Below are positions 850 to 58,896 of a stretch of DNA of 64,000 bases, piece after piece. This stretch comes from an uncultured Gammaproteobacteria bacterium (GTDB lineage: Bacteria; Patescibacteriota; Microgenomatia; UBA10105; UBA927): assembly GCA_964527425.1 (NCBI GenBank), contig CAZGOA010000002.1:73346-137345 (forward strand), in the 5' to 3' direction. The notes beneath the pieces were generated by a model. It searched no databases. It worked only from the letters and a program-made list of their open reading frames with translations, and was not told the origin of the DNA. Within the stretch, counting starts at the first letter, position 1, and the number at the start of each line of letters is the position of its first letter. Both the position numbers and the translations under genes were made by a program.

Positions 850-852
850 GTA

Positions 853-28042: not shown

Positions 28043-29098
28043 ATGTCCAGAAAATTTCTATTCATAATAATAACGTTATTTTTGCTAATAGCTATTCCTA
28101 TTACATTTTTTGTTATGCGTCAGCAACAAGAAATTAGGAAACAAGCTGCTCCATTAACACAGTTATCCATGAGTCCCGCTCAAATCTCCAAAAATGTGGG
28201 TGATGAATTCCAGGTTCAAATTATGATCGATACGGGAACAAACCCAGTTATTCTCACCGACATGTATATTACGTATGATCCTACCAAATTACAATTTCTA
28301 AGTGCTGTAAATTCTGCAAACTTTCCGAATGAACAAACAACAATCTCAAATCCTAATGGTGCTTTTCACTACCAATTAACCACATTAAGTTTACAAACCC
28401 CATTTACAGGTACCGGACCCGTAGCAACACTACGATTTCAAGCACTTGCACCAACAACCTCACCTATAGATATTGCATTTACTGAACAAACGGGTATTTT
28501 CGGAATTCAAGAACAAAAAGTTAATTTACTCATTGGTGCTAATCCAGCAAAAGTGACAATAGGTGGAGGTGGTTCAACAATCGCACCTACACCTTCAACA
28601 ATTCCAACAACACTTACACCAACACAGCCTTCAAGTCCTTCTGGCTTACTTAATTTAACGGTAACTTCACCTGTTAACAATTCTGTAACATCCGACTCCA
28701 CACCAACTATCGTTGGGAAAGCTAATTCTGGGAGTATTATCACTATAGTATCTTCACCCACAGGATTTAATGGAAGTATAACTGCTGATACTACAGGAAA
28801 CTGGTCATTTACCCCAACACAAGCCATAAAAAACGGTACATATACTCTCACGGTTACCGCTACAAATCCCGTTTCCGGTCAAACACAATCTACAACATCA
28901 ATTATAACAATAGGTTCATCCACAATAACGCCAACTACCACACCAACTATTATTACTTCAGATACTGACACAATTGAAGAAGACACTTCTACTTCAGAAA
29001 TACCGGTAACCGGAACAATAGAAACCACATTACTCATAGCTCTAATTGGTTTAATTATGCTTCTGGGAGGAGCTGCATTGCCATTTTTTATCCGCTGA
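28043..29098 (+). CDS. Cell-surface protein. It has a signal anchor, a cohesin-like beta domain, a Thr/Pro linker, a bacterial Ig-like domain, and a C-terminal EIPVTG motif followed by a hydrophobic helix and FFIR tail (sortase-type sorting signal).
   Basis: The N-terminus has a TM/signal helix. The Ig-like segment reads SPVNNSVTSDSTPTIVGKANSGSIITIV…TGNWSFTPTQAIKNGTYTLTVTATN. The C-terminus reads SEIPVTGTIETTLLIALIGLIMLLGGAALPFFIR. Confidence 0.5.
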   Translation: MSRKFLFIIITLFLLIAIPITFFVMRQQQEIRKQAAPLTQLSMSPAQISKNVGDEFQVQIMIDTGTNPVILTDMYITYDPTKLQFLSAVNSANFPNEQTTISNPNGAFHYQLTTLSLQTPFTGTGPVATLRFQALAPTTSPIDIAFTEQTGIFGIQEQKVNLLIGANPAKVTIGGGGSTIAPTPSTIPTTLTPTQPSSPSGLLNLTVTSPVNNSVTSDSTPTIVGKANSGSIITIVSSPTGFNGSITADTTGNWSFTPTQAIKNGTYTLTVTATNPVSGQTQSTTSIITIGSSTITPTTTPTIITSDTDTIEEDTSTSEIPVTGTIETTLLIALIGLIMLLGGAALPFFIR

Positions 29099-29100
29099 TT

Positions 29101-30501
29101 ATGAACAACATACTTGAAAAAAACACCTCTCCTAAAATCACTTCATTTATTTCAACTCTGAGTTTATTAATTCTATTACCTTTATTACTCCTTGGTGTAT
29201 ATGAGAGCGTACAGGTAATCACTCGAGCGTTTGGTACTCCGGCAAATATTATTGTTAATACAGATATTCAACTTTCTCAGGTTACAACAGATCATATGAG
29301 AGCATTTGCTCAAGGCGGAGAAGAAGCAACTGACATGCTTGAATCTATTATTCCATCAGTAAAGGCGTTAAAACCTACATATATCCGCATTGACCATATT
29401 TATGACTATCATAATGTTGTACAAAGGACTTCAGAAGGCCTTAGTTTTGATTTTTCCCGCTTAGATAAAGCAGTTGATAGTATTTTTCAAACTGGTGCGA
29501 CCCCTGTGCTCGCACTTTCATATATGCCTTCTGCTATCGCCAAAGATGGTGTAATTATTAACCCGCCAAACAATTGGGATGAATGGGCGTTAGTCGTACA
29601 AAGAACAATTGAACATTATAGTGGAAAAAATAATAAAAATTATAGAAATATCTACTATGAAGTCTGGAATGAACCAGATTTAGCGCAATTTGGAAGCTGG
29701 AAACTAACAGGAGAAAAAAATTACCTTACCCTGTATAGATATGCAGCTCAAGGAGCAAGAAATGCTGCTAATACCAATCCATTCTTCATAGGTGGTCCAT
29801 CAACTACCGGATTGTACAAAAACTGGATCATCGCATTAACAACACTCGGGAGTCGAGTTGATTTCTTTTCCTGGCATTCATATTTATTTGACCCAAATCA
29901 ATTTGCCAAAGATCAAATGAATATTTCAAGCTGGCTTTCTTCAACACCATATTATGCTCTTTTACCTCGTTTTGTTACCGAGTTTGGATTTACAGGCGCC
30001 AAGGATCCCCGATACAGTACAATGTATGCAGCAGCACATACTGCAGCTGTATTTCGCCAAACAGCTACAGGTGGACCACAAGCTTTATTTTCTTTTCAAT
30101 TAAAAGATGGTCCAAATCAGGAAGACGGATGGGGAATGATTACGCATGAATCAAAGGGCAACACTCTCAAACCCAGATACCACGTATATTCATTTCTAGA
30201 GTCTATGAATGGAACACGGTTGGAATTGTTAGGAGAAGGAAGTTGGGTAAGTGCACTTGCTACAATCAATAATGATATTATACGTGTCCTTTTAATTAAC
30301 TTTAATCACCAAAGTAGTAAATCAGAAACAGTACCAGTTACTTTCGCCAGAATTGCATCAGGCACCTATAAATATCGCGAACGATTTCTATTAGGTAGAG
30401 ACGCTACGTTTACTGAACAAATCGATAATAATACGCTTAAAAAAGAAATATTTATGCCGGCAAATAGTGTAGCGATTATAGAATTAACTAAAGAAAATTA
30501 A
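29101..30501 (+). CDS. Secreted glycoside hydrolase, clan GH-A (GH39/GH5-like)
   Basis: N-terminal signal anchor. The YYEVWNEPD motif (NEP catalytic acid/base) and (beta/alpha)8-type segments. 466 aa. Confidence 0.5.
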   Translation: MNNILEKNTSPKITSFISTLSLLILLPLLLLGVYESVQVITRAFGTPANIIVNTDIQLSQVTTDHMRAFAQGGEEATDMLESIIPSVKALKPTYIRIDHIYDYHNVVQRTSEGLSFDFSRLDKAVDSIFQTGATPVLALSYMPSAIAKDGVIINPPNNWDEWALVVQRTIEHYSGKNNKNYRNIYYEVWNEPDLAQFGSWKLTGEKNYLTLYRYAAQGARNAANTNPFFIGGPSTTGLYKNWIIALTTLGSRVDFFSWHSYLFDPNQFAKDQMNISSWLSSTPYYALLPRFVTEFGFTGAKDPRYSTMYAAAHTAAVFRQTATGGPQALFSFQLKDGPNQEDGWGMITHESKGNTLKPRYHVYSFLESMNGTRLELLGEGSWVSALATINNDIIRVLLINFNHQSSKSETVPVTFARIASGTYKYRERFLLGRDATFTEQIDNNTLKKEIFMPANSVAIIELTKEN

Positions 30502-32495: not shown

Positions 32496-32579
32496 TCTTA
32501 CCTCAGTTCAATTGAGCTCTTTTTACTTGTATATATTTGAGGATTTTCTATTTTCCGTTCAGATGTATATACTAGTTAC

Positions 32580-33116
32580 ATGGCTGCCCAACCAGTTTCA
32601 GTTAATTTACTAGACCAACCAGAATTTGAAGGGTCTTCTGTGACGAGACTTTTCAACTGGGCTGTTACCTATGGTCGATATATTATGATTGGAACGGAAG
32701 TTATTGTGTTGTTGGCTTTTATTTCACGATTCAGTCTCGATAGAAAACTCACAGATCTAAGAGAAGAAATTGCCCAAAAACAAATAATCCTTGAAGCAAA
32801 TAAAAATTTTGAGGAAGAAATTAAACAACTGCAAACAAACATACTCACAGTAAATAGCCTTATTGAAACCCAGCGAATACCTCTTGATATTTTTAACCAG
32901 GTAATTTCCATTTTACCTCCCGACATAATCTTACTTTCGTATAAACAGGAGGATATAAATATTGAACTTAAATTATTAGCCGGTACGACAAATAGTTTTT
33001 CCATTTTCTTAAATAGTATTCAAAGAATACCGTCACTTTCAGGAATAGAAATAACAGAAATAAGAAAAGATGCACTAAGAGGTACAGAATTTAGAATTAT
33101 TGCAAAAATACAATAA
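32580..33116 (+). CDS. PilN-like type IV pilus assembly protein (bitopic)
   Basis: Short cytoplasmic N-terminus with a VNLLDQPEF segment (compare the PilN INLLP motif), a single TM, and a coiled-coil plus periplasmic domain. Confidence 0.35.
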   Translation: MAAQPVSVNLLDQPEFEGSSVTRLFNWAVTYGRYIMIGTEVIVLLAFISRFSLDRKLTDLREEIAQKQIILEANKNFEEEIKQLQTNILTVNSLIETQRIPLDIFNQVISILPPDIILLSYKQEDINIELKLLAGTTNSFSIFLNSIQRIPSLSGIEITEIRKDALRGTEFRIIAKIQ

Positions 33117-33780
33117 TATGGATCAACCAAATAAATCTCAATCAGTATTATCATTCAGGAGATACTCAAAACCGCTTGAACCCTTAATCACTAAACCTCA
33201 AAACAGAGTGTATACAGCCACAATTCTCTCTTTTTTGGTAGTGTCACTATTTTTATGGTATGCAATCAGACCTACTATTCAAACAATTCTTTCATTAAGA
33301 AGAGAAATAATTGACAATACAGAAGTCAGCAAACTCATGGAAGAAAAAATTAGCGCACTCGTTGAAGCTCAAGCAGTGTATCAAGAAATAAGCGCAGATC
33401 TTCCAATGCTGTATGAAGCGTTACCATCAAAACCAGAGCCAATGAGTGCTTTATTAACACTCCGTACTCTAGTATCAGAGTCGGGAGCATCTATTTCTGC
33501 AATTAACCTGCCACAAGTTGATTTGCTAAATTCCGAATCTACTTCTTCTGGTCAAAAACCTGATGATATACCTAATACTCTTCTTACTATTCATGTTGAC
33601 GGATCATATACAAATTTAAAAACATTCCTTAATCAAGTAATGAATCTTAGACGGATTATGTCTATACAGTCCCTTTTTATTACCACATCTGTAGAAAGCG
33701 AAAACTCGTCAATTGATCCTACTCTTCGTCTTATACTAAAGTTAAAACTACATCATAATCCCAAAGGAGCATCATCATGA
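33100..33780 (+). CDS. PilO-like type IV pilus assembly protein (bitopic)
   Basis: Cytoplasmic N-terminus, a TM (ATILSFLVVSLFLWYAI), a coiled coil and a C-terminal domain. It overlaps the upstream PilN-like gene. Confidence 0.35.
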   Translation: MQKYNNMDQPNKSQSVLSFRRYSKPLEPLITKPQNRVYTATILSFLVVSLFLWYAIRPTIQTILSLRREIIDNTEVSKLMEEKISALVEAQAVYQEISADLPMLYEALPSKPEPMSALLTLRTLVSESGASISAINLPQVDLLNSESTSSGQKPDDIPNTLLTIHVDGSYTNLKTFLNQVMNLRRIMSIQSLFITTSVESENSSIDPTLRLILKLKLHHNPKGASS

Positions 33781-33995
33781 ATGTAGAAGAAAGTGACCGA
33801 GATTTATTACTCGTTTCAATTTTTACATTTTTAACTGTTTTATCGTGGGTGTTCTTTGAGCTGGTAAAGACTATAAAAACAACTACAGTAAAGGCTCCAG
33901 TTCAGGAAATCATTAAACCGTTGAACCCGACTATAGATACTGCAATACTTGATACATTAAGAGAAAGAAAATCATATTTTCCAGTCAATGAATAA
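33777..33995 (+). CDS. Small membrane protein in the surface operon
   Basis: 72 aa with one TM (LLVSIFTFLTVLSWVFF). It is translationally coupled on both sides. Confidence 0.3.
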   Translation: MNVEESDRDLLLVSIFTFLTVLSWVFFELVKTIKTTTVKAPVQEIIKPLNPTIDTAILDTLRERKSYFPVNE

Positions 33996-35286
33996 ACCAA
34001 TAAGAATCCCTACTATTTTCGCACTCCTCTTCGTAGGAGTTCTTCTCTTAACAATGACATGGATTACTAAAATAATTTCACAGCCAACACAAGCAGACGT
34101 AGGTAAACTTCCTAAAGATATTCAAGTAACAAATGTGTCAGACACATCGTTCACAGTACTCTGGATTACAGAAAAACCAACACGTGGAGTAATCCAAGTA
34201 ACTCCTCCAGATGGTCAAGCATTAACGTTTTATGATGATCATGCAGTGCAATCCCAAAATCAAGAATTTACGACTCATAGCGTAACTGTACGGGGCATGC
34301 AAGCACTCACACAATACACCATCACGTTTCTAAATACTCCAGACAAAACACTTACTATAACGACAGGACCAACGCTTTCACTTAATTCAAATCAATTAGG
34401 TCCTCTCCATGGCTCAGTAAAAAATTCAGATGGAACACCTGCAGTAGGCTCTTTAGTCTATCTTGCTTTAGAAGGAAGCCAAATACTTTCAACGACAGTA
34501 AAGGATTCAGGAAGTTTTCTCATCCCTCTTAATTTATTACGAACAGAAGATACTACCGCATATCTACCTGTTAAAGAAGAACCACTACCTGTTACTCTCA
34601 CGATTATATCTCCAACAGGAGAAAAAACCATAGCAACAACAAATACAGATAACGACTCTCCAGTTCCCGATATAACTTTAGGCCAACCAAACGACTTTAC
34701 ACAATCATCTGTAAAACCAACTCCTGTACTTGCTGAAAAACAATCATCGTTTCAATCCGTACTCGGTACAATAAATACAACAGCAGTAGCTTCTTCTAGT
34801 GTAACTCTGGCAACACCGATTCAAGGAGGAATAGTACGGAGTGAATATCCGTTTATTACTGGCAAAGGTATTCCAGATGAAATAGTAACAATTATTATAG
34901 GAAGCAAAAGTCCTACTGTTGATACTGTACGAGTTAAAAAAGATGGAACCTGGCAATTTACACCAAAAAAAGGCATACCAGCAGGAAACCAAAGTGTTAC
35001 TATCTCTTCGTTTGATGAAAATAAAAATCCAATTTCTATAACGCACCTGTTTCAAATTATGAAAAGTGGTACTCAAGTACTCGGTGATGCAACTCCGTCC
35101 GCAAGTCCAACAATAATTCTTCCAACCCCAATAAGCACAATTAGCGCAACACCAATCCCCACCTTGCTAATAGAACCTACTCCTACAACCGAAATTCCCA
35201 CAACAGCAACGACAGTACCTACCTATATCTTATTAGCAGCAGGAATATCATTAAGTATTATCGGATTACTTGTTTTTATACTGTAA
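33988..35286 (+). CDS. Surface protein. It has an N-terminal signal anchor, an FN3-like domain, a bacterial Ig-like domain and a C-terminal TM anchor.
   Basis: FN3-like segment: VTNVSDTSFTVLWITEKPTRGVIQV…YTITF. Ig-like segment: IVTIIIGSKSPTVDTVRVKKDGTWQFTPKK. C-terminus: …TEIPTTATTVPTYILLAAGISLSIIGLLVFIL. Confidence 0.5.
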   Translation: MNKPIRIPTIFALLFVGVLLLTMTWITKIISQPTQADVGKLPKDIQVTNVSDTSFTVLWITEKPTRGVIQVTPPDGQALTFYDDHAVQSQNQEFTTHSVTVRGMQALTQYTITFLNTPDKTLTITTGPTLSLNSNQLGPLHGSVKNSDGTPAVGSLVYLALEGSQILSTTVKDSGSFLIPLNLLRTEDTTAYLPVKEEPLPVTLTIISPTGEKTIATTNTDNDSPVPDITLGQPNDFTQSSVKPTPVLAEKQSSFQSVLGTINTTAVASSSVTLATPIQGGIVRSEYPFITGKGIPDEIVTIIIGSKSPTVDTVRVKKDGTWQFTPKKGIPAGNQSVTISSFDENKNPISITHLFQIMKSGTQVLGDATPSASPTIILPTPISTISATPIPTLLIEPTPTTEIPTTATTVPTYILLAAGISLSIIGLLVFIL

Positions 35287-35377
35287 GCTATCGGTATACT
35301 TGACGATTGAATACAGCTCTAGTAGCGTAGATAGTAGCTAACACCAGATAGTCTATTATCTCTATTTTTATATTTAC

Positions 35378-36850
35378 ATGGATTTATACGATCAAGCACA
35401 AAAAAATAATGAACCACAATCATCAGATCTGCCTGATCTCTCCTCACTCATGTCACCACCACAAGATAGTCAACCAGTTCAAACCCAACCTCCTCCACCA
35501 CAAATTGAACCTATTTCTGCATTGGATGTTCCCGTAACCCCGCCAATTTCTGATCAACCGACAGTAGATACACCACCAGTACAATCCGCAACGCCTGACA
35601 TTTCGCCTTTACCAACATCTGTTCCACCTATTGCTAATCCAGAAACACCCATGCCCACTCCACAAGAAGTAAAACCCACAGATCTTGCTTCAGAAGCTGT
35701 AATATCGAATTCACCTGATGCCAATACTTTACCTACACCAGATTCCTCCAAGCCAGATACTGTGGCAAACACACCAGATACCCAAACATTTATGCACATG
35801 AGTGATATACCCCGTGACACAGTTCCCTCTTCTCCTGTAACCGAAACAGTCCCATCTCCAGCACCACTGGATAATTCACCACCTAATACTACCCCTCCAG
35901 TACCACCAAATGCAGCGACACCATCCAAAAAGTTCACAATGGGAAGAGGAATTCTCTTTGCAGTACTTGCTCTAGCGATACTTACCCTTCCTGTCATTGG
36001 ATTTTTTGTAACACGACCCAATTCTCAAACAGATACGCGTACCCAAGCTGCAATAAGCAATTGTGCGATCCCTGGCGATCCAGATTGTGATATAACATCA
36101 CCAACTAACACTCCTCCAAGTAGCACATCTAATTCTGCCACAACCCCCGCTACGCAAACACAAACGGTACAATCGCAAGCCGGCTGTAGTTCTTTAGGGA
36201 ATCCATGTGAAAACAACGGCTGCTGTACTGGACTAGTCTGTCAGGGAAATACCGGCAATCGTGTATGTCAACAGCCAGCAACAACTCCTGATCAATGGTG
36301 TGGGGGAACACCCGGTTCTTGTGGCAGACTAATAGCTTTCCATTGCAATAGTGATTTCCCAAGTGGAACACCCGAATCAGGTTGTTTTGATAATCCAATT
36401 TATATCCAAAATAATGATGCAGCAGGCTGGGCTCAGGCACGTGCACATGTTGCCGGCTGTGGTCAAATAGACGTCGTTTGTAAAAGTGGCCCTAAAGAAA
36501 ACCAATTATGTGGAGATTTCGAAATTTTCAAAGATAATTGTGGTCCTGGCTCACAACCGACACCTATTCCAATATCTCAATGTAGAAATTTAAAAATTTA
36601 TCGTGATGGTATAGTTGTAAAAACTAAAGATTACAATACTCTTCGACCACAACAACAAATTCAGTTCGCAGTTGTATCAAACCAAGAGGCAGCACGAGCT
36701 CGATTTTACATTAACGGTAAAGATCCAGTCATATCGACAGAAAAAAATGAAAATGGTGAATTTTTTATTAACTGGGAAATACCAGAAGTAGGTAGTCAGA
36801 GGACATTTACAGTACAAGCAGAAGTTCGAATAAATGGAGTTTGGCAATAA
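35378..36850 (+). CDS. Bitopic surface protein of an unrecognised family, paralogous to 37885-38391 at both the N- and C-terminal modules
   Basis: N-terminal DLPDLSSLMSPPQD motif and a Pro-rich cytoplasmic region. A TM at about residue 195. Cys-rich extracytoplasmic region (GCSSLGNPCENNGCCTGLVCQGN…). C-terminal beta domain ending …RINGVWQ. Confidence 0.5.
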   Translation: MDLYDQAQKNNEPQSSDLPDLSSLMSPPQDSQPVQTQPPPPQIEPISALDVPVTPPISDQPTVDTPPVQSATPDISPLPTSVPPIANPETPMPTPQEVKPTDLASEAVISNSPDANTLPTPDSSKPDTVANTPDTQTFMHMSDIPRDTVPSSPVTETVPSPAPLDNSPPNTTPPVPPNAATPSKKFTMGRGILFAVLALAILTLPVIGFFVTRPNSQTDTRTQAAISNCAIPGDPDCDITSPTNTPPSSTSNSATTPATQTQTVQSQAGCSSLGNPCENNGCCTGLVCQGNTGNRVCQQPATTPDQWCGGTPGSCGRLIAFHCNSDFPSGTPESGCFDNPIYIQNNDAAGWAQARAHVAGCGQIDVVCKSGPKENQLCGDFEIFKDNCGPGSQPTPIPISQCRNLKIYRDGIVVKTKDYNTLRPQQQIQFAVVSNQEAARARFYINGKDPVISTEKNENGEFFINWEIPEVGSQRTFTVQAEVRINGVWQ

Positions 36851-37880
36851 TATGAAAAACATTTCAAAATTCGCTGTGACTCTTGGCTTATTAATTACTT
36901 CTCTATTAATTGCAACGACGGCAGTATTAGTAATTCAATTAAGAAACCGTCAGGCAATAACAGATTTACCACCTGAGGCCGCAGTTGATGCGTGTAAAAT
37001 AGTATTTACGATTGATCCGGTGTGCAAAACTGACTTTACCCTCCTTCCTCCTGAGTCACCAGAAAATACACCAACACCTTCCGTTTTACCAACCGTAACA
37101 ATTTCACCACAATGCACAAGTGCGTGTGATCCTGCAGGAAGAAACCAGCAGTGTCCAACAAATCACAGCTGCGCACCAGCAAACCATCCTAATGCTAATA
37201 CCTGCATATTAACTGCATGTGTACAAAATCCTGATCTTTGTAACAGCACAAGCTGCTCACTATTACCAACACCGCCTTCAACTAATACACCCACCCCACA
37301 AGCTACTAACACTCCAACAGTACGTGCAACAAATACACCGATAAATACACCGACAAATACACAAATTCCTCCAACAAACACTATTGCATCCACTAGTACA
37401 CCAAATCCAACCGCAACACCAAATCCTTTATGCGGATCATCATGCGATCCTGATGGGTCAAGCAATCAATGTCCATCGAATCATACCTGTGCACCAGATA
37501 GTCATCCAAATGCCAATACCTGTATTCTCACTTCGTGTGTACAAAATCCAAGCCTATGCTCAAATAACAGCTGCACAGTCCTCCCAACACCAACAGCTGT
37601 ACGTACGTCAACACCGACTCAACCAATTGCATACTCACCGTCATCTACGCCCATACCAGGCTCATGTAATGCTAACTGTTCGACAGATAGTAATTGTGCA
37701 AACAACTTAGTATGCTCAGGTGGTACGTGCCGCAACCCAGAATGCACTGAGCAAGCTAATTGTTCATGCTCGATACAGCCAACGCCAGAAATTCCTGTAA
37801 CAGGCACAGGAACTACTCTAGTAGGTATTGGTATAATTGTTGGAGGAATACTACTCTTACTGTTAGGATTAGCATTTTAA
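36834..37880 (+). CDS. Cysteine-rich repeat surface protein with a C-terminal EIPVTG sorting signal
   Basis: N-terminal signal anchor. Two ~55 aa 8-Cys repeats (CxxxCDPxGxxxQCPxNHxCAPxxHPNANTCILTxCVQNPxLC) and a third degenerate Cys-rich module. The C-terminus reads PEIPVTGTGTTLVGIGIIVGGILLLLLGLAF. Confidence 0.5.
   Translation: MEFGNNMKNISKFAVTLGLLITSLLIATTAVLVIQLRNRQAITDLPPEAAVDACKIVFTIDPVCKTDFTLLPPESPENTPTPSVLPTVTISPQCTSACDPAGRNQQCPTNHSCAPANHPNANTCILTACVQNPDLCNSTSCSLLPTPPSTNTPTPQATNTPTVRATNTPINTPTNTQIPPTNTIASTSTPNPTATPNPLCGSSCDPDGSSNQCPSNHTCAPDSHPNANTCILTSCVQNPSLCSNNSCTVLPTPTAVRTSTPTQPIAYSPSSTPIPGSCNANCSTDSNCANNLVCSGGTCRNPECTEQANCSCSIQPTPEIPVTGTGTTLVGIGIIVGGILLLLLGLAF
37114..37598 (+). 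repeat. Intragenic duplicated ~165-nt module encoding the 8-Cys domain, two copies at about 37114-37278 and 37431-37598
   Basis: The two nucleotide segments are roughly 75% identical. Compare tgcacaagtgcgtgtgatcctgcaggaag… with tgcggatcatcatgcgatcctgatgggtc…, and …aatacctgcatattaactgcatgtgtacaaaatcc… with …aatacctgtattctcacttcgtgtgtacaaaatcc…. Confidence 0.7.
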
Positions 37881-37884
37881 CACT

Positions 37885-38391
37885 ATGAATACACAGCCAA
37901 ACAACCAAGATTTTCCAGACCTATCAATACTTATGAATACACAACCGGTTCATGATCCGACGCCACCACCAAGTCATGCACAAAAAAAGCGCTCACCAAT
38001 ACTAGGGTTGTCTATCCTGCTACTCATCTTATTTTTTGGTGCAACTAGTGCTATTCTCATCTGGCAAACTCAATCAAGAGAAACTATTGCACGAGTTGAA
38101 ACACAAGCCGAAGAACCCACTGATACAGTGCCAAAATCCTGTAAACGTCTGACCATTTATAAAGATGGAGTCGCTGTAACTGACTATAATACACTTAGAG
38201 CTGGTGACACTGTAACCTTAGCTACTCCCATTGGTTCTGCAGTTAAAGCGAGATTTACTATTAATAAAACAGAGGTAGAATCGACAAAAGTTACCTTTAA
38301 TAATGAGTTCATCGTTGACTATACATTCCCCTTGGATATGCGTGCCGTTCGTATCAAGGTAGAGCGAAAAATAGATGGCATCTGGCAATAA
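37885..38391 (+). CDS. Small bitopic surface protein, paralogue of 35378-36850
   Basis: N-terminal DFPDLSILMNTQP motif. TM (ILGLSILLLILFFGATSAILIW). C-terminal domain CKRLTIYKDGVAVTDYNTLRAGD…KIDGIWQ, alignable with the C-terminus of the 490 aa protein. Confidence 0.5.
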   Translation: MNTQPNNQDFPDLSILMNTQPVHDPTPPPSHAQKKRSPILGLSILLLILFFGATSAILIWQTQSRETIARVETQAEEPTDTVPKSCKRLTIYKDGVAVTDYNTLRAGDTVTLATPIGSAVKARFTINKTEVESTKVTFNNEFIVDYTFPLDMRAVRIKVERKIDGIWQ

Positions 38392-38474: not shown

Positions 38475-39395
38475 ATGATTTCTTTTGTTTATAAACGAGC
38501 CCATGATACTGTTCCCCAAACCAGAGATGAATTTACTTATGGTGCATGGGTACATGTAGAATCTCCAACAAATGAAGACCTTATATATTTAAGTGATACC
38601 TTTAACTTAGAAAAAAGCTTGTTAACCGATGCATTAGATATCAACGAAGTTCCTCGTATTGAACAAGAAGAAGGTGCCATTTACCTGTTTACCCGCTTTG
38701 TGGTATCTCAAAAAGATAGAGTATTCACAACTCCTGTATTAATTATCTATAGAAAGAAAGTCATTATAACTATTGCTCCCAAAACTGTCCCTCAGGTTAA
38801 TGCCATCATGTCTCAAAAAGGAAACTGGAGTACCTATGACACAGAAGGGTTTGTGCTATTACTCCTCTCTACCTTAAACACTACAGTTGAGCGTTCATTA
38901 AATACCATCTCACGACTCATACAACAATCTAAAATAAAAGCAGAACGAATAGGTACAAAAGAACTATTATTTTTAGTAGATATGGAAAACAGTTTATATG
39001 ACATTAATGGACTTCTAGTACGTTTAGAAAATTTAGTGTCTACTCTCCTGTCTAAGTCATGGTTAAAACGTACAGAAGAACAAGAAGAAATATTAAAAGA
39101 TATTTACTTAGCAATTCAGCAAATGCTAGATATCGTTAAAGAAAATATCAGAACGGTCGTAAATACCCGCGATGCAGTATCAACAATAATGACTGCTAAT
39201 CTTAACCGCGTCATCAAACTCTTTACCTCACTGACGGTCTTGTTAACTGTCCCAATGCTTGTAGCTACATTTTATGGAATGAATGTCACGTTACCGTTGT
39301 CTCAATCTCCTACCGCATTTGTAACGATCATAATGGGTACAATAATCGTATCTTTAGGACTACTTATTTTATTTGTTAAAAATGATTGGTTGTAG
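38475..39395 (+). CDS. corA: CorA-family magnesium/cobalt transporter
   Basis: Cytoplasmic N-domain and two C-terminal TM helices with the YGMN signature (LVATFYGMNVTLP). Confidence 0.7.
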   Translation: MISFVYKRAHDTVPQTRDEFTYGAWVHVESPTNEDLIYLSDTFNLEKSLLTDALDINEVPRIEQEEGAIYLFTRFVVSQKDRVFTTPVLIIYRKKVIITIAPKTVPQVNAIMSQKGNWSTYDTEGFVLLLLSTLNTTVERSLNTISRLIQQSKIKAERIGTKELLFLVDMENSLYDINGLLVRLENLVSTLLSKSWLKRTEEQEEILKDIYLAIQQMLDIVKENIRTVVNTRDAVSTIMTANLNRVIKLFTSLTVLLTVPMLVATFYGMNVTLPLSQSPTAFVTIIMGTIIVSLGLLILFVKNDWL

Positions 39396-40431
39396 CAGAA
39401 AAAGAAGCTTCTATATATGCACGTAACGCTTCTGAAGAATTAATTGGTATCAAGACATATTTCCCCTCATAAAGTCTTTCTTCAGGATGAATAAGTTGTG
39501 ATTCAAGAGATACTTTCTGAAACGATAACACATTACGATTCTGCAGAAATAATCTAATAAACTGTAATATGTCATCCGTTTGCACGTCGGTTATTATGCG
39601 ATTAAGCAGAATGTAATAAAGTTTAGAAACTCGCTCAGCAGAATACCAATCTATCGGATTTTTTAATTTTGATAACACAGCTTCTATCAATTCTTCTTGT
39701 CTTCTTGCACGCGCAAAATCTGTACCCTCATCGCCACTTGCATGCCTGCTTCGAACATATTGTAAAGCTCTTTCTCCATCCATTATTTGATTGCCTGATT
39801 CAAAATTGATTGTTTGATACCGACATCTAAATAATGGATCTCCATTGCATGTATCATTCTCTTTTCCTGCGATTGGAAACTGATTATCAATAAATGGTGT
39901 AGTTACATTTACAGACACACCACCCAATACATTAATAGCCTCTTGAAATGCTTCAAAATCGATAAGAAGAGTGTAATGAACAGGTATACCTGTAATTTCT
40001 TTAATAATCTCTTTGGTAAATCCAATGCCCCCACCTGTGCGTCCTTGAACATTGCCATAATAATATGCAGTATTTATGCGATCTCTTAACGTATCAGACC
40101 AAAGATCCCTGGGAATCGGTAAGATGATTGATCGCTGTGCTCTATTGGTCGATAACGAAATTATTTGAATAGTATCAGTTAAATCAGATCCTTCATGTTG
40201 TTTGCCGCCAATACCTAATAACAATATATTTATTCTTCCATTATGCTGTTGTATCGAATCAGATTTAAGATGAAGGTAGAGATCCAGTATACTTAAACCT
40301 ACAGATTGTAATAGTAGTACTGAGGCAATACTAAATAATAATAGACCAACGACTACACTCATAATACCACTTAAGAAAAGCAGTTTACCTATGCGTCGTT
40401 GTTTAAAAGGCTTCTTGGGATTCATGATCAT
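39376..40431 (-). CDS. LytR-CpsA-Psr (LCP) family cell-wall glycopolymer ligase
   Basis: N-terminal TM and an LCP domain (…INILLLGIGGKQHEGSDLTDTIQIISLS…RDLW…). Confidence 0.75.
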   Translation of the reverse strand: MIMNPKKPFKQRRIGKLLFLSGIMSVVVGLLLFSIASVLLLQSVGLSILDLYLHLKSDSIQQHNGRINILLLGIGGKQHEGSDLTDTIQIISLSTNRAQRSIILPIPRDLWSDTLRDRINTAYYYGNVQGRTGGGIGFTKEIIKEITGIPVHYTLLIDFEAFQEAINVLGGVSVNVTTPFIDNQFPIAGKENDTCNGDPLFRCRYQTINFESGNQIMDGERALQYVRSRHASGDEGTDFARARRQEELIEAVLSKLKNPIDWYSAERVSKLYYILLNRIITDVQTDDILQFIRLFLQNRNVLSFQKVSLESQLIHPEERLYEGKYVLIPINSSEALRAYIEASFSATTNHF

Positions 40432-40485
40432 GAGTTTTTACTATTACGTGTGTCAAAGATTCAAATTGTGATAGGATAATAATTT

Positions 40486-42348
40486 ATGATACCGGATTTA
40501 CTATCTCAGTTAAACACATCACAAAAAAAAGCTGCTGAACATATCAAAGGACCTGGTCTAATTTTAGCTGGTGCAGGAAGCGGAAAAACAAAAGTATTAA
40601 CCTATCGAACTGCAAATCTAATTCTTCATCATCGGGTATCTCCATACAATATTCTTCTTATGACATTTACTAACAAAGCAGCAGGAGAAATGAAACATCG
40701 CATTCAAAATCTTCTAACTACCCATCAGCCAAATTTAACATTAGCAACGCCTTATGCAGGAACATTTCATTCTTTTTGTGTAAAGCTGTTGCGTATAGAT
40801 GGACATACAATAACTATTCCAGATAACTTTGTTATTTTTGATGATCAAGATCAAAGTGATGCAGTAAAACAAGTCATGAAAGAGTTAAATCTTTCGACAA
40901 AGAGCTTTAATCCAAATGCGGTAAAACATACTATCTCATCTGCCAAAAATGAACTTATTTCACCTCAGGAGTACGCGTCATTTGCACGAGGGTATTTTCA
41001 GGAAACGGTATCAACTGTCTACTTTGCATATGAAAAGCTATTAAGAGAAAATGCGGCACTGGATTTTGATGACATACTTGTATTTTCAGTTAAGTTGTTT
41101 AAAGAACGATCAGAAATATTACAAAAGTATCAAGAAAAATATCAATACATCATGATCGATGAATATCAGGATACCAATAAAGTTCAGTATGAACTCTCAT
41201 TGTTACTCTCTGGCAGTCACCAGAATATTGCAGTTGTAGGTGATGCCTCCCAAAGTATCTATAGGTGGAGAGGTGCTGATTTTAGAAATATTAATAACTT
41301 CAAAAAAGACTTCCCTGACGTCATCGAATATCATTTAGATCAGAACTATCGTTCGACACAAGTTATTTTAGATGCTGCCTATGGAGTAATTTCAAGGAAT
41401 ACAACACATCCTGTATTAGAACTCTGGACCGATAATAATGGAGGAGACAGCATAACAGTCTATGAGGCAAGAAATGAACATGACGAAGGAAATTTTCTTG
41501 TTCAAACTATTCTTCAATCTGGAAAGCCTTTTACTGATTTTGCGGTCCTATACAGAACAAATGCTCAGTCCCGCAGTATTGAAGAAGCTTTTCTCCATGC
41601 TGGGATCCCCTATATATTAATCGGTGGAACACGCTTTTATGAAAGAAAAGAAATAAAAGACGTATTAGCGTATATACGATATATAGCCAACCCAAAAGAT
41701 ATGATTTCATACAACAGAATCGAAAAGTTAGGAAAAGGGAGACTTAAAAAATTTCTTGATTTTGCACACACTATTCAACAAGATACTATTCTCGTTAACC
41801 ATACTACTCTAGAAATTCTTGATCTTACGTTAGAGGCATCAGATTATTTATCTTTATATGATGCAAATGTAGAAGAAGAAGCATACAGACTTGAAAACAT
41901 TAAAGAATTGCGATCTGTGGCAACCGAATTTCCTGATGTACTTAACTTTCTTGAAAATGTTGCCCTTGTAGAAAGAGAATATGAACCAGATACCGTTAAA
42001 AAAAGAGAAGAAAAGAGATCAGCAGTAACTTTAATGACAATCCATTCCGCCAAAGGACTGGAATTTTCTACTGTTTTTATGATTGGTATGGAAGAAGGAT
42101 TGTTCCCTCATAGTAGAAGTCTTATGGATAAAGAAGAATTAGAAGAAGAAAGGCGCCTTTGTTATGTAGGAATTACAAGAGCAAAATCATCTCTATATTT
42201 AACATATGCAAACCGACGTATGTTTTTTGGAACAAGAACACACAATATGGTGTCTAGATTTATTTCAGAAATTCCAGAAAAAGTTCTTACATTTCAAGTA
42301 TCACTAGGTTATGACAGAGGATTTCGAGAAGAAGACCTGCTAATCTAG
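40486..42348 (+). CDS. pcrA: UvrD/PcrA-family superfamily-1 DNA helicase (short, 620 aa)
   Basis: Helicase motifs Q, I (AGAGSGKTKVLTYR), II (IMIDEYQDTN), III (VGDASQSIYRWRGA), V and VI (LCYVGITRAK). Confidence 0.8.
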   Translation: MIPDLLSQLNTSQKKAAEHIKGPGLILAGAGSGKTKVLTYRTANLILHHRVSPYNILLMTFTNKAAGEMKHRIQNLLTTHQPNLTLATPYAGTFHSFCVKLLRIDGHTITIPDNFVIFDDQDQSDAVKQVMKELNLSTKSFNPNAVKHTISSAKNELISPQEYASFARGYFQETVSTVYFAYEKLLRENAALDFDDILVFSVKLFKERSEILQKYQEKYQYIMIDEYQDTNKVQYELSLLLSGSHQNIAVVGDASQSIYRWRGADFRNINNFKKDFPDVIEYHLDQNYRSTQVILDAAYGVISRNTTHPVLELWTDNNGGDSITVYEARNEHDEGNFLVQTILQSGKPFTDFAVLYRTNAQSRSIEEAFLHAGIPYILIGGTRFYERKEIKDVLAYIRYIANPKDMISYNRIEKLGKGRLKKFLDFAHTIQQDTILVNHTTLEILDLTLEASDYLSLYDANVEEEAYRLENIKELRSVATEFPDVLNFLENVALVEREYEPDTVKKREEKRSAVTLMTIHSAKGLEFSTVFMIGMEEGLFPHSRSLMDKEELEEERRLCYVGITRAKSSLYLTYANRRMFFGTRTHNMVSRFISEIPEKVLTFQVSLGYDRGFREEDLLI

Positions 42349-42349
42349 C

Positions 42350-42568
42350 CTACATAAAAAATGATATTATTTTTATGGCAGCCAAAATTAATGTACCTAA
42401 TACAATTAATAGGGATAATATAATCTCAATTTCCAGAAATAATCGAGCAATCCCTCTTACACTTCCAAAAGAAAACAACGGGGTTATAAATCGACTATCT
42501 ATCGGTAACCAACTAATAGGATATTCTATCGTTTTTTTATACGATCTCTTGCTTTTTTTTGTTTTCAT
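42350..42568 (-). CDS. Possible small C-terminally anchored membrane protein
   Basis: The internal-Met version is ~72 aa (MKTKKSKRSY…IILSLLIVLGTLILAAIKIISFFM). The longer track ORF overlaps the FemAB start, so this call is weak. Confidence 0.2.
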   Translation of the reverse strand: MKTKKSKRSYKKTIEYPISWLPIDSRFITPLFSFGSVRGIARLFLEIEIILSLLIVLGTLILAAIKIISFFM

Positions 42569-42624
42569 ATCTTCATTGTAACAAACAACACCTACATGGG
42601 ATAATACCTCTATTATAACTTGAT

Positions 42625-43599
42625 ATGCGTAAATCTTCACTTTCAAATAATTTGACAGAAAACTGGAATTCATTAGTAAATCACCCACTTCAATCATATG
42701 AATGGGGTCTATTTCGTGAGAAAACTGGTGTTAAAGTCGTTCGATTTGATGAAACACCACACCCTTATCAATTAACAATACATAAACTTCCCTATCTTCC
42801 TTATAGGATTGGATATCTACCAAAAGGACCACCAATTACTCAAACAATGATAAATACCTTATACAACTATGGGAAAGCACATAACATTATTTTCTTTCAA
42901 TTAGAACCTGATGTTGTAGAAAAATTATCAGACCATACCCCTCAATTTCCGTTTATAAAACCTTCGCATCATCCATTATTTACGAAACATACGTTTATGA
43001 TAGATTTATCAAAAACAGAAGATCAGTTACTTGCTTCTATGCACCCCAAGACTCGATATAACCTAAAAGTCGCTCAAAAACATAAAGTCGTTATAAAAAA
43101 TGATAATTCAAAAGAAGCCTTTACAGAATATCTACGGCTTGTTGAAGAAACAACAAAACGTCAAGGATTTTATGCCCATTCACTTTCCTATCACAAAAAA
43201 ATGTGGGAAACATTATCGCCATCTATCGCTCGGCTTTGGACTGCTTCCTATCAGGGAACTATTGTGGCCGCCTGGATAATATTTTTATGGAAAGAAACTA
43301 TGTATTATCCTTATGGCACCTCTTCTCGAGAATTTCGTAATATTATGGCACCAAATTTATTACTCTGGGAAATTATAAAATGGGGTAAAAAACATAAGTA
43401 CAACTATTTTGATTTATGGGGTGCACTGGGACCGAATCCTGACCAAAACGATCCGTTTTATGGATTTCATCGATTTAAAGCAGGATTTAGTCCAGAATTA
43501 GTTACCTTTATTGGCTCTTTTGATTTAGTTGTAAACCCTTTACTCTATAAACTTTATTGCATCGCAGACACCATCAGATGGAAATTATTAAAGAAATAA
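42625..43599 (+). CDS. FemAB-family aminoacyl-tRNA-dependent peptidoglycan peptide-bridge transferase (FemX-like)
   Basis: 324 aa with FemAB-fold motifs (…KTRYNLKVAQKHKV…, …YYPYGTSSREFRN…, …FYGFHRFKAGF…). Confidence 0.7.
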   Translation: MRKSSLSNNLTENWNSLVNHPLQSYEWGLFREKTGVKVVRFDETPHPYQLTIHKLPYLPYRIGYLPKGPPITQTMINTLYNYGKAHNIIFFQLEPDVVEKLSDHTPQFPFIKPSHHPLFTKHTFMIDLSKTEDQLLASMHPKTRYNLKVAQKHKVVIKNDNSKEAFTEYLRLVEETTKRQGFYAHSLSYHKKMWETLSPSIARLWTASYQGTIVAAWIIFLWKETMYYPYGTSSREFRNIMAPNLLLWEIIKWGKKHKYNYFDLWGALGPNPDQNDPFYGFHRFKAGFSPELVTFIGSFDLVVNPLLYKLYCIADTIRWKLLKK

Positions 43600-43602
43600 T
43601 AA

Positions 43603-43872
43603 GCGAAAAGGTTGGAAGCAAACCATTCCGGGATAGGTGAATATCCGATCGCGGAATGTGGAGAACCAATCACACTAAGTTTTAGCCAAATTAACAACAA
43701 ATATTTAATTAAATTCTTGAGTGTGAGCATTGAAAAAAGAATGAGTAGTTTTCGAGAGAACAATTTAGGGGGGATTCCCCACGAATTGTGGGAGGGGGGG
43801 CGGACAGTCCCCCGAATTGTGAACGAAGAAAACCATTCTTTTTTCACCAGCTCACGAGCTTTTGGTCCTTTT
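43603..43872 (+). other. Intergenic region that looks like a candidate structured RNA of unknown class. It is G-tract-rich and higher in GC than its surroundings, and ends in a small hairpin plus T-tract.
   Basis: A ~300 nt non-coding gap between the two FemAB genes contains a GGGGGG run at 43768-73 and a GGGGGGG run at 43794-800. A repeated CCCC(A)CGAATTGTG(G/A)A unit occurs twice. An AGCTCacgGAGCT hairpin (43849-60) is followed by TTTTGGTCCTTTT. Confidence 0.2.
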
Positions 43873-43888
43873 GGCGATTCAAAAAGAC

Positions 43889-44749
43889 ATGAATAAATGT
43901 ATGGAACTCCAACAATCTCCACTTTATGCAGCATATGTAAAAAAGCTAGGATGGACAATCGAACGGATTGATTCTACAAATATTTTTCTCAAGAAAATTC
44001 CTTTTATAGGAACATTTGCAAAAATACAAAGAATAGAACAACTGCCTGGAGTAGAATCAGTATTAACGTTATTCAGAAAATATCATATTAAGCGAACAGT
44101 CCTAGAAGCAGGACCAAATGTAAATGAACAAGAATTTAAACACTGGTGCAATGAAATTAGTAAGCATGTTACCGTTATTTCTTCCCCTTATATTCCAACA
44201 AAAACCTTACTTGTTGATTTAACTCTTTCTGAAGAAAAAATATTCCAACAATTTTCTGAAGCAAAACGACGAGCAGTAAGAAGAGCCAAAAAAAATAATG
44301 TTATTGTTACGGAGTCACAAAACATTCAAGAACTTATTACCATAAAAAACCGTTCTGCTGGTTTGTTTGGATTTATTACCACACATGGAGTTAAACAATT
44401 ATGGGAAGTATTTTCACCTGAAAAAGCAACTTGTGTATTAGCATACACACAAGATAAAAAACTCATAGGAGGAGTTTTACTTATTTTCTGGGAAGATATA
44501 GCCTATTACTGGATTGCTGGTTCAATCAAACAAGGCAAAAAACTTTTTGCACCAACCCTTCTTGCATACGAGGCCATGAAAATAGCAAAAAAAAGAAATG
44601 CCAAGCAATTTGATTTTGTTGGTGTTTGGGATGAACGCTTTCCCAAAGAAAATAAAGAATGGTTAGGTTTTACTAAATTTAAAGAAGGTTTCGGAGGAAA
44701 AACTCTTTATTATCCAACACATAAACACAGAAATATTAACGCAGCATAG
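43889..44749 (+). CDS. FemAB-family peptidyltransferase, second tandem paralogue
   Basis: FemAB motifs (…KRRAVRRAKKNNV…, …YYWIAGSIKQGKK…, …LGFTKFKEGFGG…). The track start is an alternative TTG codon; ATG at 43889 or 43901 is more likely. Confidence 0.65.
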   Translation: MNKCMELQQSPLYAAYVKKLGWTIERIDSTNIFLKKIPFIGTFAKIQRIEQLPGVESVLTLFRKYHIKRTVLEAGPNVNEQEFKHWCNEISKHVTVISSPYIPTKTLLVDLTLSEEKIFQQFSEAKRRAVRRAKKNNVIVTESQNIQELITIKNRSAGLFGFITTHGVKQLWEVFSPEKATCVLAYTQDKKLIGGVLLIFWEDIAYYWIAGSIKQGKKLFAPTLLAYEAMKIAKKRNAKQFDFVGVWDERFPKENKEWLGFTKFKEGFGGKTLYYPTHKHRNINAA

Positions 44750-52631: not shown

Positions 52632-54113
52632 ATGCGAAGAATTGTTACAAGATATCCAGAAAAAACAAGACGATTAATAGAAATTCTTATTCCTTTAACT
52701 TCATGGATTATTATTACAATGCCATTTTGGCTTTCTTTTTGGAATCCTGTTGCTATGGGATACATATTAATCACTTTCAACGTTTATTGGTTTTATAAAT
52801 CATTAACACTCGCGATTAGTGCCATTAAGTCCTTTATAACTTTACAGGCTCATATTAAAGTTGATTGGTTAGCTCAAATCAAACATCACCCCGATTTTAA
52901 TAAAATACATCACATAATTATTATTCCCGAATATAAAGAACCAATTCACATACTAAAAAGAACAATAGAAAATTTATTAACTACAGATTTTCCTAAAGAA
53001 AAAATCACTTTAGTATTGGCAACAGAAAGCAAAGATACTGAAGCAACAGAAACTGGAAATGTTCTTTCTCATGTATTCAAAGATAAGGTCGGTCATTTTC
53101 TTATTACTACCCACACACTATTACCCGGTGAAGTAGCAGGAAAATCATCTAATATGGCAGCCGCAGCAGAAATCATAGAAAAAAAACTGGAAGAATGGAA
53201 TATTCCGATCGAATGGACTACAGTCACATCTTGTGACGCCGATGCACTAATTCATCCAAAATATTTATCTTGTGTTACACAGAAATTTCTCACAAATAAA
53301 GACAAATTCGAAACATTTTATCAAGGTGCCATAATGTTTTATTCAAACATTTGGCGGATACCTCTCCCTAATCGTTTTCTAAATATTCTCAATAGTATCT
53401 GGAATTTAGCATCACTATCACAACCTTCAAGACTCATTAATTTTTCAACCTATACTCTCCCTTTTAAAACAGCTAAAGATGCTGGATATTGGGGTAAAGA
53501 TGTTATACCAGAAGATTACCATATGTTTTTTAGAGTATATTTTAATAAGGGTGAGAAAGTTAAAACTCAGCCTATTTTTTTACCAATACTTGTTGATGCT
53601 GCCGAAAGCAAGGGATTTTTTAGAACTATGGTAAATCAGTACGAACAATCTAAACGTTGGGCATGGGGAGTTTCCGATATACCTTTTGTAGTGAAAGGTA
53701 TGATTATACATTCAAACATTGCTTTGATAGATAGAGTTATTCGCTTGTTAAAATTACTTGAACATCATATTTTCTGGCCAGCTAACTGGTTTTTACTAAC
53801 TATAGGAGGAATCGTGCCGGGATTGGTAAATCCAAACTTTGCAAGAACAAGTTTCGGATTTCAACTTGCCCAGTTATCTTCAGGAATATTAACACTTTCT
53901 ACAATTGTACTTTTGGTTGTCTTTTATATAGATTGGAAATTAAAACCACCAAAACCTGAACATATACGGAATTGGACGCTACCGTTTTTATATTTACAGT
54001 GGTTTACTCTTCCTATTATTTCATTTTTCCTTGCAGCTCTCCCTGGGTTGGATGCACATACTCGTTTGCTTTTAGGTAAACGACTAGAGTATCGAGTAAC
54101 AGAAAAGGTATAA
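52632..54113 (+). CDS. Membrane-integrated family-2 glycosyltransferase (cellulose-synthase-like topology)
   Basis: N- and C-terminal TM bundles flank a GT-A domain (IIIPEYKEP…LVLATESKD…GKSSNMAAAAE…TSCDADALIHP). Confidence 0.6.
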   Translation: MRRIVTRYPEKTRRLIEILIPLTSWIIITMPFWLSFWNPVAMGYILITFNVYWFYKSLTLAISAIKSFITLQAHIKVDWLAQIKHHPDFNKIHHIIIIPEYKEPIHILKRTIENLLTTDFPKEKITLVLATESKDTEATETGNVLSHVFKDKVGHFLITTHTLLPGEVAGKSSNMAAAAEIIEKKLEEWNIPIEWTTVTSCDADALIHPKYLSCVTQKFLTNKDKFETFYQGAIMFYSNIWRIPLPNRFLNILNSIWNLASLSQPSRLINFSTYTLPFKTAKDAGYWGKDVIPEDYHMFFRVYFNKGEKVKTQPIFLPILVDAAESKGFFRTMVNQYEQSKRWAWGVSDIPFVVKGMIIHSNIALIDRVIRLLKLLEHHIFWPANWFLLTIGGIVPGLVNPNFARTSFGFQLAQLSSGILTLSTIVLLVVFYIDWKLKPPKPEHIRNWTLPFLYLQWFTLPIISFFLAALPGLDAHTRLLLGKRLEYRVTEKV

Positions 54114-54142
54114 TACAATTGAATCAGTATTAATTTTCAACT

Positions 54143-55516: not shown

Positions 55517-55518
55517 CC

Positions 55519-55905
55519 ATGATTGCAAAAATCAAAAAAACGATTTCAGCAATAAGAAAACGAATAGAAATACTAACAACCTCACCAATTATGAGAGTAG
55601 TAGTGATACTTCCTCCTGTTTTAATTCTGATCATGACTATATTGATTGTTATGTATCTATCTCAATTGCCTCCCAAATTACCCTTCTTTTATTCACGACC
55701 ATGGGGAGAAGAACAATTAGTAAAACCGATATATCTCTTTATGCTTCCAATAAGTGCTCTTTTTTGGTATGTAAGTTCAATCTTGCTTATACATGTACAA
55801 ACATACCAATATAGAGTATTTGCTCAAATACTATTAATAGCACAAGCGATTTTATCAATCGCTATGATCTATGTTTTAATACGTATTATGCTGTTAGTAA
55901 CCTGA
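55519..55905 (+). CDS. Small polytopic membrane protein within the glycosylation cluster
   Basis: 128 aa with four hydrophobic helices. It is tightly packed between the GT-C and WecA-like genes. Confidence 0.35.
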   Translation: MIAKIKKTISAIRKRIEILTTSPIMRVVVILPPVLILIMTILIVMYLSQLPPKLPFFYSRPWGEEQLVKPIYLFMLPISALFWYVSSILLIHVQTYQYRVFAQILLIAQAILSIAMIYVLIRIMLLVT

Positions 55906-55906
55906 T

Positions 55907-57864: not shown

Positions 57865-57877
57865 TGTTTCTTAAGCG

Positions 57878-58879: not shown

Positions 58880-58896
58880 TATAAACTATTCATATT

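Follow-up and report, generated by a model that had tools for sequence, protein, structure and literature searches.

A conserved pilN-pilO cassette and a variable set of surface-protein genes side by side in Microgenomates bacteria

Seven co-directional genes, numbered g1 to g7 in their order, follow rpsT (Ribosomal_S20p, ending at 32495) in a 64-kb stretch of contig CAZGOA010000002.1 (hereafter the window, to which all coordinates refer). Comparison with related loci divides them into two adjacent units: unit A (32568-35286), which consists of pilN, pilO, g3 and g4, and unit B (35378-38391), which consists of g5, g6 and g7. On sequence grounds, g1 and g2 encode PilN and PilO proper and not look-alikes, that is, the 'alignment' proteins of the type IV pilus, each of which spans the membrane once. 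The best explanation of the locus, to which I give a probability of about 0.5, is that unit A encodes the alignment module of the pilus together with two new partners on the wall side, unit B being a variable island of adhesin-like proteins.

Type IV pili are regarded as central to host attachment and DNA uptake in the Candidate Phyla Radiation (CPR, or Patescibacteria). These bacteria are not known to have PilP or PilQ, which raises the question of how the pilus machine crosses the single-membrane, wall-bearing CPR envelope and is anchored in it. A pilN-pilO operon that includes genes for a tiny, constrained membrane protein and a putative wall-anchored stalk is a testable candidate for this missing link in one large CPR lineage, and the Cys-rich proteins encoded beside it would represent a separate, fast-evolving surface repertoire. 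If the linkage reflects only inherited gene order, all that remains is PilN and PilO, routinely annotated, next to hypothetical surface proteins. PilN and PilO are already known from CPR; as far as the literature searched shows, there is no description yet of a detached pilN-pilO-g3-g4 operon, of the g3 family or of the linear motif of g4.

Two units with different evolutionary behaviour

The earlier note on this DNA had read g1 and g2 as PilN/PilO-like genes, and this identity is borne out by Pfam matches, by the matches of orthologues and by comparison of family profiles with solved structures. The g2 product matches Pfam PilO (PF04350) with 33.1 bits for a cut-off of 22, and a profile built from 35 homologues retrieves Myxococcus xanthus PilO (3jc8, E 3.8e-9) and Pseudomonas aeruginosa PilO (2rjz/5uvr, E about 5e-5) from the PDB. 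The g1 product itself scores 22.2 bits against Pfam PilN (PF05137), 0.6 under the cut-off of 22.8, with a core match at residues 104-176; PilN is nevertheless matched by 29 of 30 g1 orthologues (best E 1.8e-12), and the best PDB match of the family profile is M. xanthus PilN (3jc8, E 1.3e-3). Both proteins have a short N-terminus followed by a single hydrophobic segment (residues 35-53 in g1, transmembrane (TM) segment 32-54 in g2). The N-terminal [IV]NL[LI] motif of PilN is kept, L10 being invariant and N9 at least 90% conserved among 30 sequences; the proline of the PilM-binding motif, which I take to be of the INLLP type, is replaced by D or G. Binding of PilM to a strongly conserved motif at the N-terminus of PilN has been established (PMC5805733).

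The comparison covered about 110 related loci, 30 from genomes and 80 from metagenomes, the latter recovered with the g3 alignment; labels of the form L0xx or L1xx denote individual loci. The loci from species-representative genomes bear the label Candidatus Gottesmanbacteria, apart from a single Woesebacteria label, and by these labels the lineage is Microgenomates within Patescibacteria. I read the window as part of an ultra-small Gottesmanbacteria genome; two complete Gottesmanbacteria chromosomes, OY970230.1 and OY969569.1, were among those recovered. An identical PilO occurs on contigs of at least 24 public assemblies; in the six such loci shown, gene order does not differ and identity is 97-100% for every gene. 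The order rpsT-g1-g2-g3-g4 is the same in 30 of 30 genome loci and in every metagenome locus that is long enough, the median gaps between g1 and g4 being 2.5, 2 and 2 nucleotides (nt). There are insertions and rearrangements to either side of the g1-g4 block, but none inside it.

What follows g4 behaves differently. The number of g5/g6-type genes at this position ranges from 0 to 6: there are none in L008/L023, L018, L019 and L029, a single g5-g6 pair is the commonest state, and L010 represents the upper extreme with four g5-like and two g6-like genes. In L025 the g5-g6 pair is inverted as a unit, and in L037 a g5-like and g6-like pair lies in an unrelated neighbourhood. Unit B therefore behaves as a module of its own, a reading that the 91-nt gap between g4 and g5 also fits, and the proposal that all seven genes specify a single apparatus was rejected. 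A cassette conserved in related genomes had been anticipated as well, and one exists, but its constant part is pilN-pilO-g3-g4 and not pilNO plus a pair of paralogues.

The seven open reading frames (ORFs) lie on the + strand with the positions and spacing first reported for them, the start of g2 being the only adjustment that an ORF check required. Public gene calls and the N-termini of orthologues favour the ATG at 33118, which gives a protein of 220 amino acids (aa); the alternative TTG at 33100 would create a 17-nt overlap with g1. With the ATG start, the junctions are +1 (g1/g2), -4 (g2/g3), -8 (g3/g4), +91 (g4/g5), -17 (g5/g6) and +4 nt (g6/g7). Immediately before unit A, a hexamer of the TATACT/TATGAT/TATTAT type precedes an in-frame pilN ATG by 6-8 nt in 12 of the 19 testable related genomes, and by exactly 6 nt in 11 of these 12. 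Its position suggests a promoter for a leaderless pilN transcript. No comparable promoter element is conserved before g5, and no terminator-like site was found after g4 or after g7.

Table 1. Features of units A and B in window coordinates
Feature	Position	Strand	Description
-10-like hexamer TATACT	32568-32573	+	6 nt upstream of g1 ATG; candidate promoter of leaderless pilN transcript
g1, PilN, 178 aa	32580-33116	+	xVNLL motif near N-terminus, single TM (about aa 35-53), putative periplasmic coil and core
g2, PilO, 220 aa from ATG 33118	33118-33780	+	Pfam PilO match, PDB profile matches
g3, 72-aa single-pass membrane protein	33777-33995	+	between pilO and g4 in all loci
g4, 432-aa secreted stalk protein	33988-35286	+	N-terminal signal/TM, FN3, beta-sandwich, Ig-like, putative C-terminal sorting signal
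g4 near-invariant linear motif KSGTQVLGDATPSA, residues 358-373	35059-35106	+	in predicted disordered region
g4 C-terminal sorting-type signal, IPTTA and hydrophobic segment	35194-35283	+	[IVP]Px[ST][GA] and TM in 27/30 g4 orthologues
g5, 490-aa N-in single-pass protein	35378-36850	+	Pro-rich cytoplasmic part, TM about 192-210, 17-Cys ectodomain, C-terminal beta-sandwich
g6, 348-aa secreted Cys-rich protein	36834-37880	+	two 8-Cys repeats and a distinct 8-Cys module, ends IPVTG and TM
g7, 168-aa short g5 paralogue	37885-38391	+	N-terminal PDLSxLM motif, TM 38-65, C-terminal beta-sandwich 86-168

The proposed pilus module and its alternatives

The g3 product is the best-conserved protein of the cassette, with 88, 83 and 64% identity to its orthologues in L009, L007 and L008, compared to 63, 58 and 47% for PilN. 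Column conservation in its TM and juxtamembrane region is 0.81, versus 0.47 in the soluble tail, and the same imbalance is found in PilN (0.96 versus 0.52-0.57 in the soluble parts) and in PilO (0.85 versus 0.43). Since all three TM segments are far more conserved than the soluble parts, I propose that g3 is a third subunit in the membrane, its helix packing with those of PilN and PilO. Neither as a single sequence nor as a 29-sequence profile does g3 have a relative in Pfam, NCBIfam or the PDB. The possibility that it is a pilin or pseudopilin was rejected, since it lacks the G-1/E+5 class III signal, which was found nowhere in the window.

The description of g4 as a protein with FN3 and Ig-like domains, also made in the earlier note, agrees with the match of its profile to solved structures, with a structural model and with the structures that this model resembles. 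The window protein scores 23.1 bits against Pfam FN3, below the cut-off of 25, and has a weak Big match too; the family profile matches FN3 structures in the PDB (E 5e-5), and many orthologues carry a precomputed PF00041 assignment. The AlphaFold2 model (predicted local distance difference test, pLDDT, 77) comprises a helix (residues 9-30), an FN3 domain (43-125), a second beta-sandwich (140-219), an Ig-like domain (290-357) and a C-terminal helix (409-431); the FN3 region (about 42-125) has seven strands at pLDDT above 90, and disordered linkers flank the Ig-like domain, one between it and the second beta-sandwich, the other on its C-terminal side (pLDDT below 50 for residues 360-407). Foldseek matches this model to tandem Ig/FN3 adhesin stalks (SiiE, an ice-binding adhesin, fibronectin) with E values of about 1e-7. 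More than 120 orthologues were retrieved at E<1e-159, and the few whose source is named bear the labels Gottesmanbacteria, Microgenomates or Patescibacteria.

Two short elements of g4 deserve attention. The first is the motif KSGTQVLGDATPSA, whose column conservation reaches 0.90, as opposed to 0.45 in the flanking linkers and 0.55 in the signal/TM region of the same protein; its VLG[x]AT core is present in every one of the 30 g4 orthologues and, across the ORFs of the 30 loci, is confined to them. The second is the C-terminal signal, which in the form [IVP]Px[ST]G plus TM is common only to g4, to g6 and to an upstream Big_13 protein. Sortase is near-ubiquitous in Microgenomates (PMC6744442).

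From the identity of PilN and PilO, the different evolution of the two modules and the domain architecture of g4 and g7, I infer the following arrangement. Unit A would be an operon with its own promoter directly before pilN, and PilN, PilO and g3 would form one membrane complex. The g4 product would be exported and, its C-terminal xPx[ST]G plus TM signal probably being processed by sortase, would end up as a three-domain Ig-like stalk attached to the cell wall, with KSGTQVLGDATPSA acting as a docking peptide for the ectodomains of PilN, PilO and g3. In a single-membrane cell, g3 and g4 would thereby do the job that PilP and PilQ do in double-membrane cells, namely connect the platform in the membrane with the outer layer of the envelope. 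PilP binds PilNO via an unstructured region and PilQ via a beta-domain (PMC5805733). That g3 and g4 are unrecognised, Gottesmanbacteria-specific type IV pilus components, which tether the pilus platform to peptidoglycan or to an S-layer and functionally replace PilP-PilQ, is a tentative proposal, more doubtful than not.

The resemblance to the PilM-N-O-P(-Q) system of P. aeruginosa and M. xanthus extends to the homology, topology and order of the first two genes, to the xNLL motif of PilN and to the presence of two envelope genes, here g3 and g4, at the place after pilO where pilP and pilQ sit. It stops there: pilM is not adjacent, g3 and g4 are not homologues of PilP and PilQ, and cells of this kind are expected to be bounded by one membrane and to lack a secretin (PMC6744442). 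Nanosynbacter lyticus TM7x, a saccharibacterium, is likewise a CPR organism with type IV pilus genes that include PilM, PilN and PilO (PMC11623550); there, however, pilM-N-O share their loci with pilB and pilC, whereas here pilN-pilO are detached and form an operon with g3 and g4. Proteins with LPXTG-type, sortase-anchored Ig-like/FN3 stalks offer a third comparison. They share with g4 and g6 the N-terminal hydrophobic signal and the C-terminal xPx[ST]G followed by a hydrophobic segment, the window contains a sortase gene, and the g4 model is like tandem beta-sandwich adhesin stalks; the motif differs, being [IVP]Px[ST]G (IPTTA in the window g4), and the basic tail is often missing.

The rest of the pilus machine was sought in the window by scanning 51 ORFs, namely those of at least 110 aa that are not inside a longer ORF, against Pfam. 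None of them matches PilM, PilB, PilC, PilT or PilD, neither the window nor the next 10 kb past its right end contains a PilM or FtsA-like match, and a prepilin-type G[FM..][TS]LxE motif occurs in no frame of the window. The earlier note was thus right that pilM, pilB, pilC and pilin genes are missing here, and it suggested that the locus may specify an adhesion or attachment apparatus hung on a PilNO-like scaffold. In this reading, which the lack of those genes would suit, an orphan PilN/PilO pair would have been recruited to support a non-pilus apparatus built from g3-g7. Such a role has a precedent in Helicobacter pylori, an organism devoid of type IV pili in which PilM, PilN and PilO belong to the cage of the flagellar motor and PilN/PilO homologues are found away from other pilus genes (PMC10823254), and the unusual conservation of the PilN and PilO TM segments would also agree with it. 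H. pylori differs in that it keeps pilM in the operon, in that it has no pili and in that the partners there are flagellar; CPR lack flagella, and pili are general among them. I nevertheless regard co-option as unlikely: the link of g5-g7 to pilNO is not a stable one; PilN keeps an [IV]NL[LI] motif that resembles the one bound by PilM (PMC5805733); and type IV pilus genes, PilM included, occur widely in CPR and have been reported from Microgenomates (PMC6744442, PMC7143001).

Because CPR genomes generally carry type IV pilus genes, a window without pilM, pilB and pilC does not show that PilNO work without a pilus. In CPR, the families PilB/T, PilC, PilM, PilN and PilO occur widely and show enrichment (PMC6744442), and since PilN keeps a motif resembling the PilM-docking motif, pilM, pilB, pilC and pilin genes would be expected elsewhere in the genome. 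In the complete Microgenomates genome Ch65, a single type IV pilus locus is described, for which PilA, minor pilins, PilD, PilB, PilT, PilC and PilM are named and PilN and PilO are not (PMC7143001). This description fits with pilNO being encoded apart in Microgenomates.

Several points weigh against the idea of a pilus module with wall-side partners. Neither PilM, PilB and PilC nor pilins were seen in the window and in the 10 kb past its right end. Neither g3, which has no match, nor g4, which matches FN3/Ig-type proteins only, shows homology to PilP or PilQ. The window g4 ends in IPTTA instead of xPxTG; like g6, it has no basic tail, which is often missing in relatives as well, and no LPXTG-anchor hidden Markov model of NCBIfam is matched. 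Because no terminator-like site lies between g4 and g5, read-through from g4 into unit B is possible. Lastly, a block of about 20 kb (DnaK ... UvrD) is syntenic in every recovered locus, so that the adjacency of g3 and g4 to pilNO is weak evidence and inherited gene order may suffice to account for it. A locus with broken synteny was found neither by the PilO search, the g4 profile search and the PilN genome scan nor by the g3 metagenome scan: the searches for relatives returned one clade with one gene order, in which the source labels, where given, are mostly Gottesmanbacteria.

The last point leads to an alternative in which only g1 and g2 serve the pilus machine, and in which g3-g7, in a streamlined genome, encode ordinary envelope or surface proteins that lie beside pilNO through inherited order and operon packing, with no functional tie. 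In its favour, the whole neighbourhood is syntenic in all of the roughly 110 loci; unrelated genes of this genome are packed equally tightly, as illustrated by the 2-nt gap between the Big_13 and GH39 genes; as modelled, the g4 and g7 folds are generic, the g4 domains and the common g5/g7 domain being ordinary beta-sandwiches; and Big_13 carries the same sorting signal with no pil gene as neighbour. Four features of unit A count against it: g3 is the best-conserved gene product of the block, with a TM conservation that mirrors that of PilN and PilO; insertions and rearrangements flank g1-g4 and spare its inside; a promoter-like element is conserved directly upstream of pilN; and the invariant disordered motif of g4 suggests a fixed partner. 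I consider inherited order a possible explanation of the locus, and one that has to be taken seriously, without thinking it probable.

Unit B and its Cys-rich proteins

Unit B is probably a separate, rapidly changing island of surface proteins, adhesins or wall-associated proteins for which PilNO are not obligate partners. Within the species, g5 is the most divergent gene (96.9% in L003), and g7 was found by BLAST only in L007, L009, L011, L085, L114 and L116. The products of g5 and g7 are paralogues, as had been suspected: their C-terminal 90 or so residues are 36% identical (E 9e-15) and they have in common an N-terminal D[LF]PDLSxLM motif (E 1e-4). Their family comprises 101 representative clusters and is characterised by a Pro-rich cytoplasmic linker, one TM segment, a Cys-rich ectodomain of very variable length, which contains up to 49 Cys among the sequences examined, and a C-terminal domain of about 85 aa. 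An N-terminal helix motif, MxD[IL]LDAAQK, is present in many members, with or without PDLSxLM.

No Pfam model describes the g5/g7 family, and g6 has no consistent match in Pfam or NCBIfam; together with the result for g3, this upholds the view that these proteins fall in no recognisable sequence family of the two databases. An assignment of the g5/g7 C-terminal domain to DUF7263 was rejected as a chance match, since it is made for only 1 of 46 family members, with an E value of 0.0055. The g6 product had been presented as an 8-Cys-repeat protein, which holds for two repeated blocks only. Its 26 Cys are distributed as 2 + 8 + 8 + 8, but the third 8-Cys block (residues 278-312) is a different and better-conserved module. 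In L007, conservation of g6 is confined to its N-terminal region and the C-terminal module. A 12-nt x 2.8 array within g6 is the only tandem DNA repeat found, and a trivial one.

The Cys-rich nature of g5 and g6, which are likely folded, is one argument for a further alternative, namely that PilNO belong to a machine similar to the type II secretion system, which in this single-membrane cell would push the folded, disulfide-rich g4, g5 ectodomain and g6 through the peptidoglycan. Such a machine would explain why cargo genes follow pilNO, and a Gram-positive role of this kind for type IV pilus genes is supported by Clostridium perfringens, where a type IV pilin is needed for a matrix protein to be secreted (PMC11580942). 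However, the genes of the supposed cargo vary and need not lie next to pilNO, and the signal-peptide-like N-termini and sortase-type signals of g4 and g6 are enough for surface display. I judge a secretion machine of this type very improbable.

Two further observations concern the g5 family. A segment of g5, CSSLGNPCENNGCCTGLVCQGNTGNRVC (residues about 259-288, 36150-36240), has the spacing C-x6-C-x5-CC-x4-C-x8-C, which is typical of inhibitor-cystine-knot (knottin) peptides, and this type of spacing is kept in the distant g5-like protein of L037 (6071-7363), where the segment reads CANASESCEQKACCAGLVCQGVIGSRVC. In addition, the stretch that follows the TM segment is alike in the g5 family (35950-36010; L037, L038) and at the N-terminus of the Big_13 protein (28055-28150), with the patterns ..FFVxQQQQxADxRxxA.. 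and ..FFVMRQQQEIRKQAA... BLAST gives 33-44% identity over about 32 aa for this segment, with E values of about 0.02-0.03, and it may be a common signal-anchor or cleavage motif of the surface proteins of the lineage.

Surroundings of the cassette

The window, with a GC content of 33-42%, is rich in housekeeping genes; HrcA-GrpE-DnaK-DnaJ, NusA, IF-2, PNPase, MurJ, FemAB, LytR-CpsA-Psr and UvrD are among the neighbours. Genes of envelope biogenesis abound at 39376-44749 and 52632-59667, where MurJ, LytR-CpsA-Psr, two FemAB-family proteins, GT2, GT4 (MraY-like), a UbiA-family protein, BacA and a PEGA+SH3 protein are encoded. This neighbourhood would fit with a wall-related role of g3 and g4, yet it belongs to the general synteny. 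Four ORFs of 390, 457, 128 and 443 aa, located at 13016-14188, 54143-55905 and 62173-63504, have no Pfam match even at E 0.1.

The sortase gene of the window (154-849, - strand) lies 3 nt from an ORF of 754 aa (154-3117 region), the only Pfam match of which is a weak one, to Baseplate_J-like (23.1 bits). At 28043-30501, a Big_13/cohesin-like surface protein that ends with IPVTG and a TM segment is followed, 2 nt on, by a GH39-like glycoside hydrolase; the C-terminal sorting signal of the former is the same as in g4 and g6, and the pair is kept in almost all related loci.

GC content is 40-42% at 34001-38000, compared to about 33-37% in most other parts of the window (up to 39% at 22-26 kb). 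The rise coincides with the Pro/Thr/Cys-rich coding sequences of g4-g6, and a foreign origin is not required to explain it. GC skew is negative in all 2-kb bins (-0.01 to -0.29), whatever the orientation of the genes, and does not switch over the 64 kb; a disparity in strand composition is announced, in the title of the paper, for another Microgenomates genome (PMC7143001).

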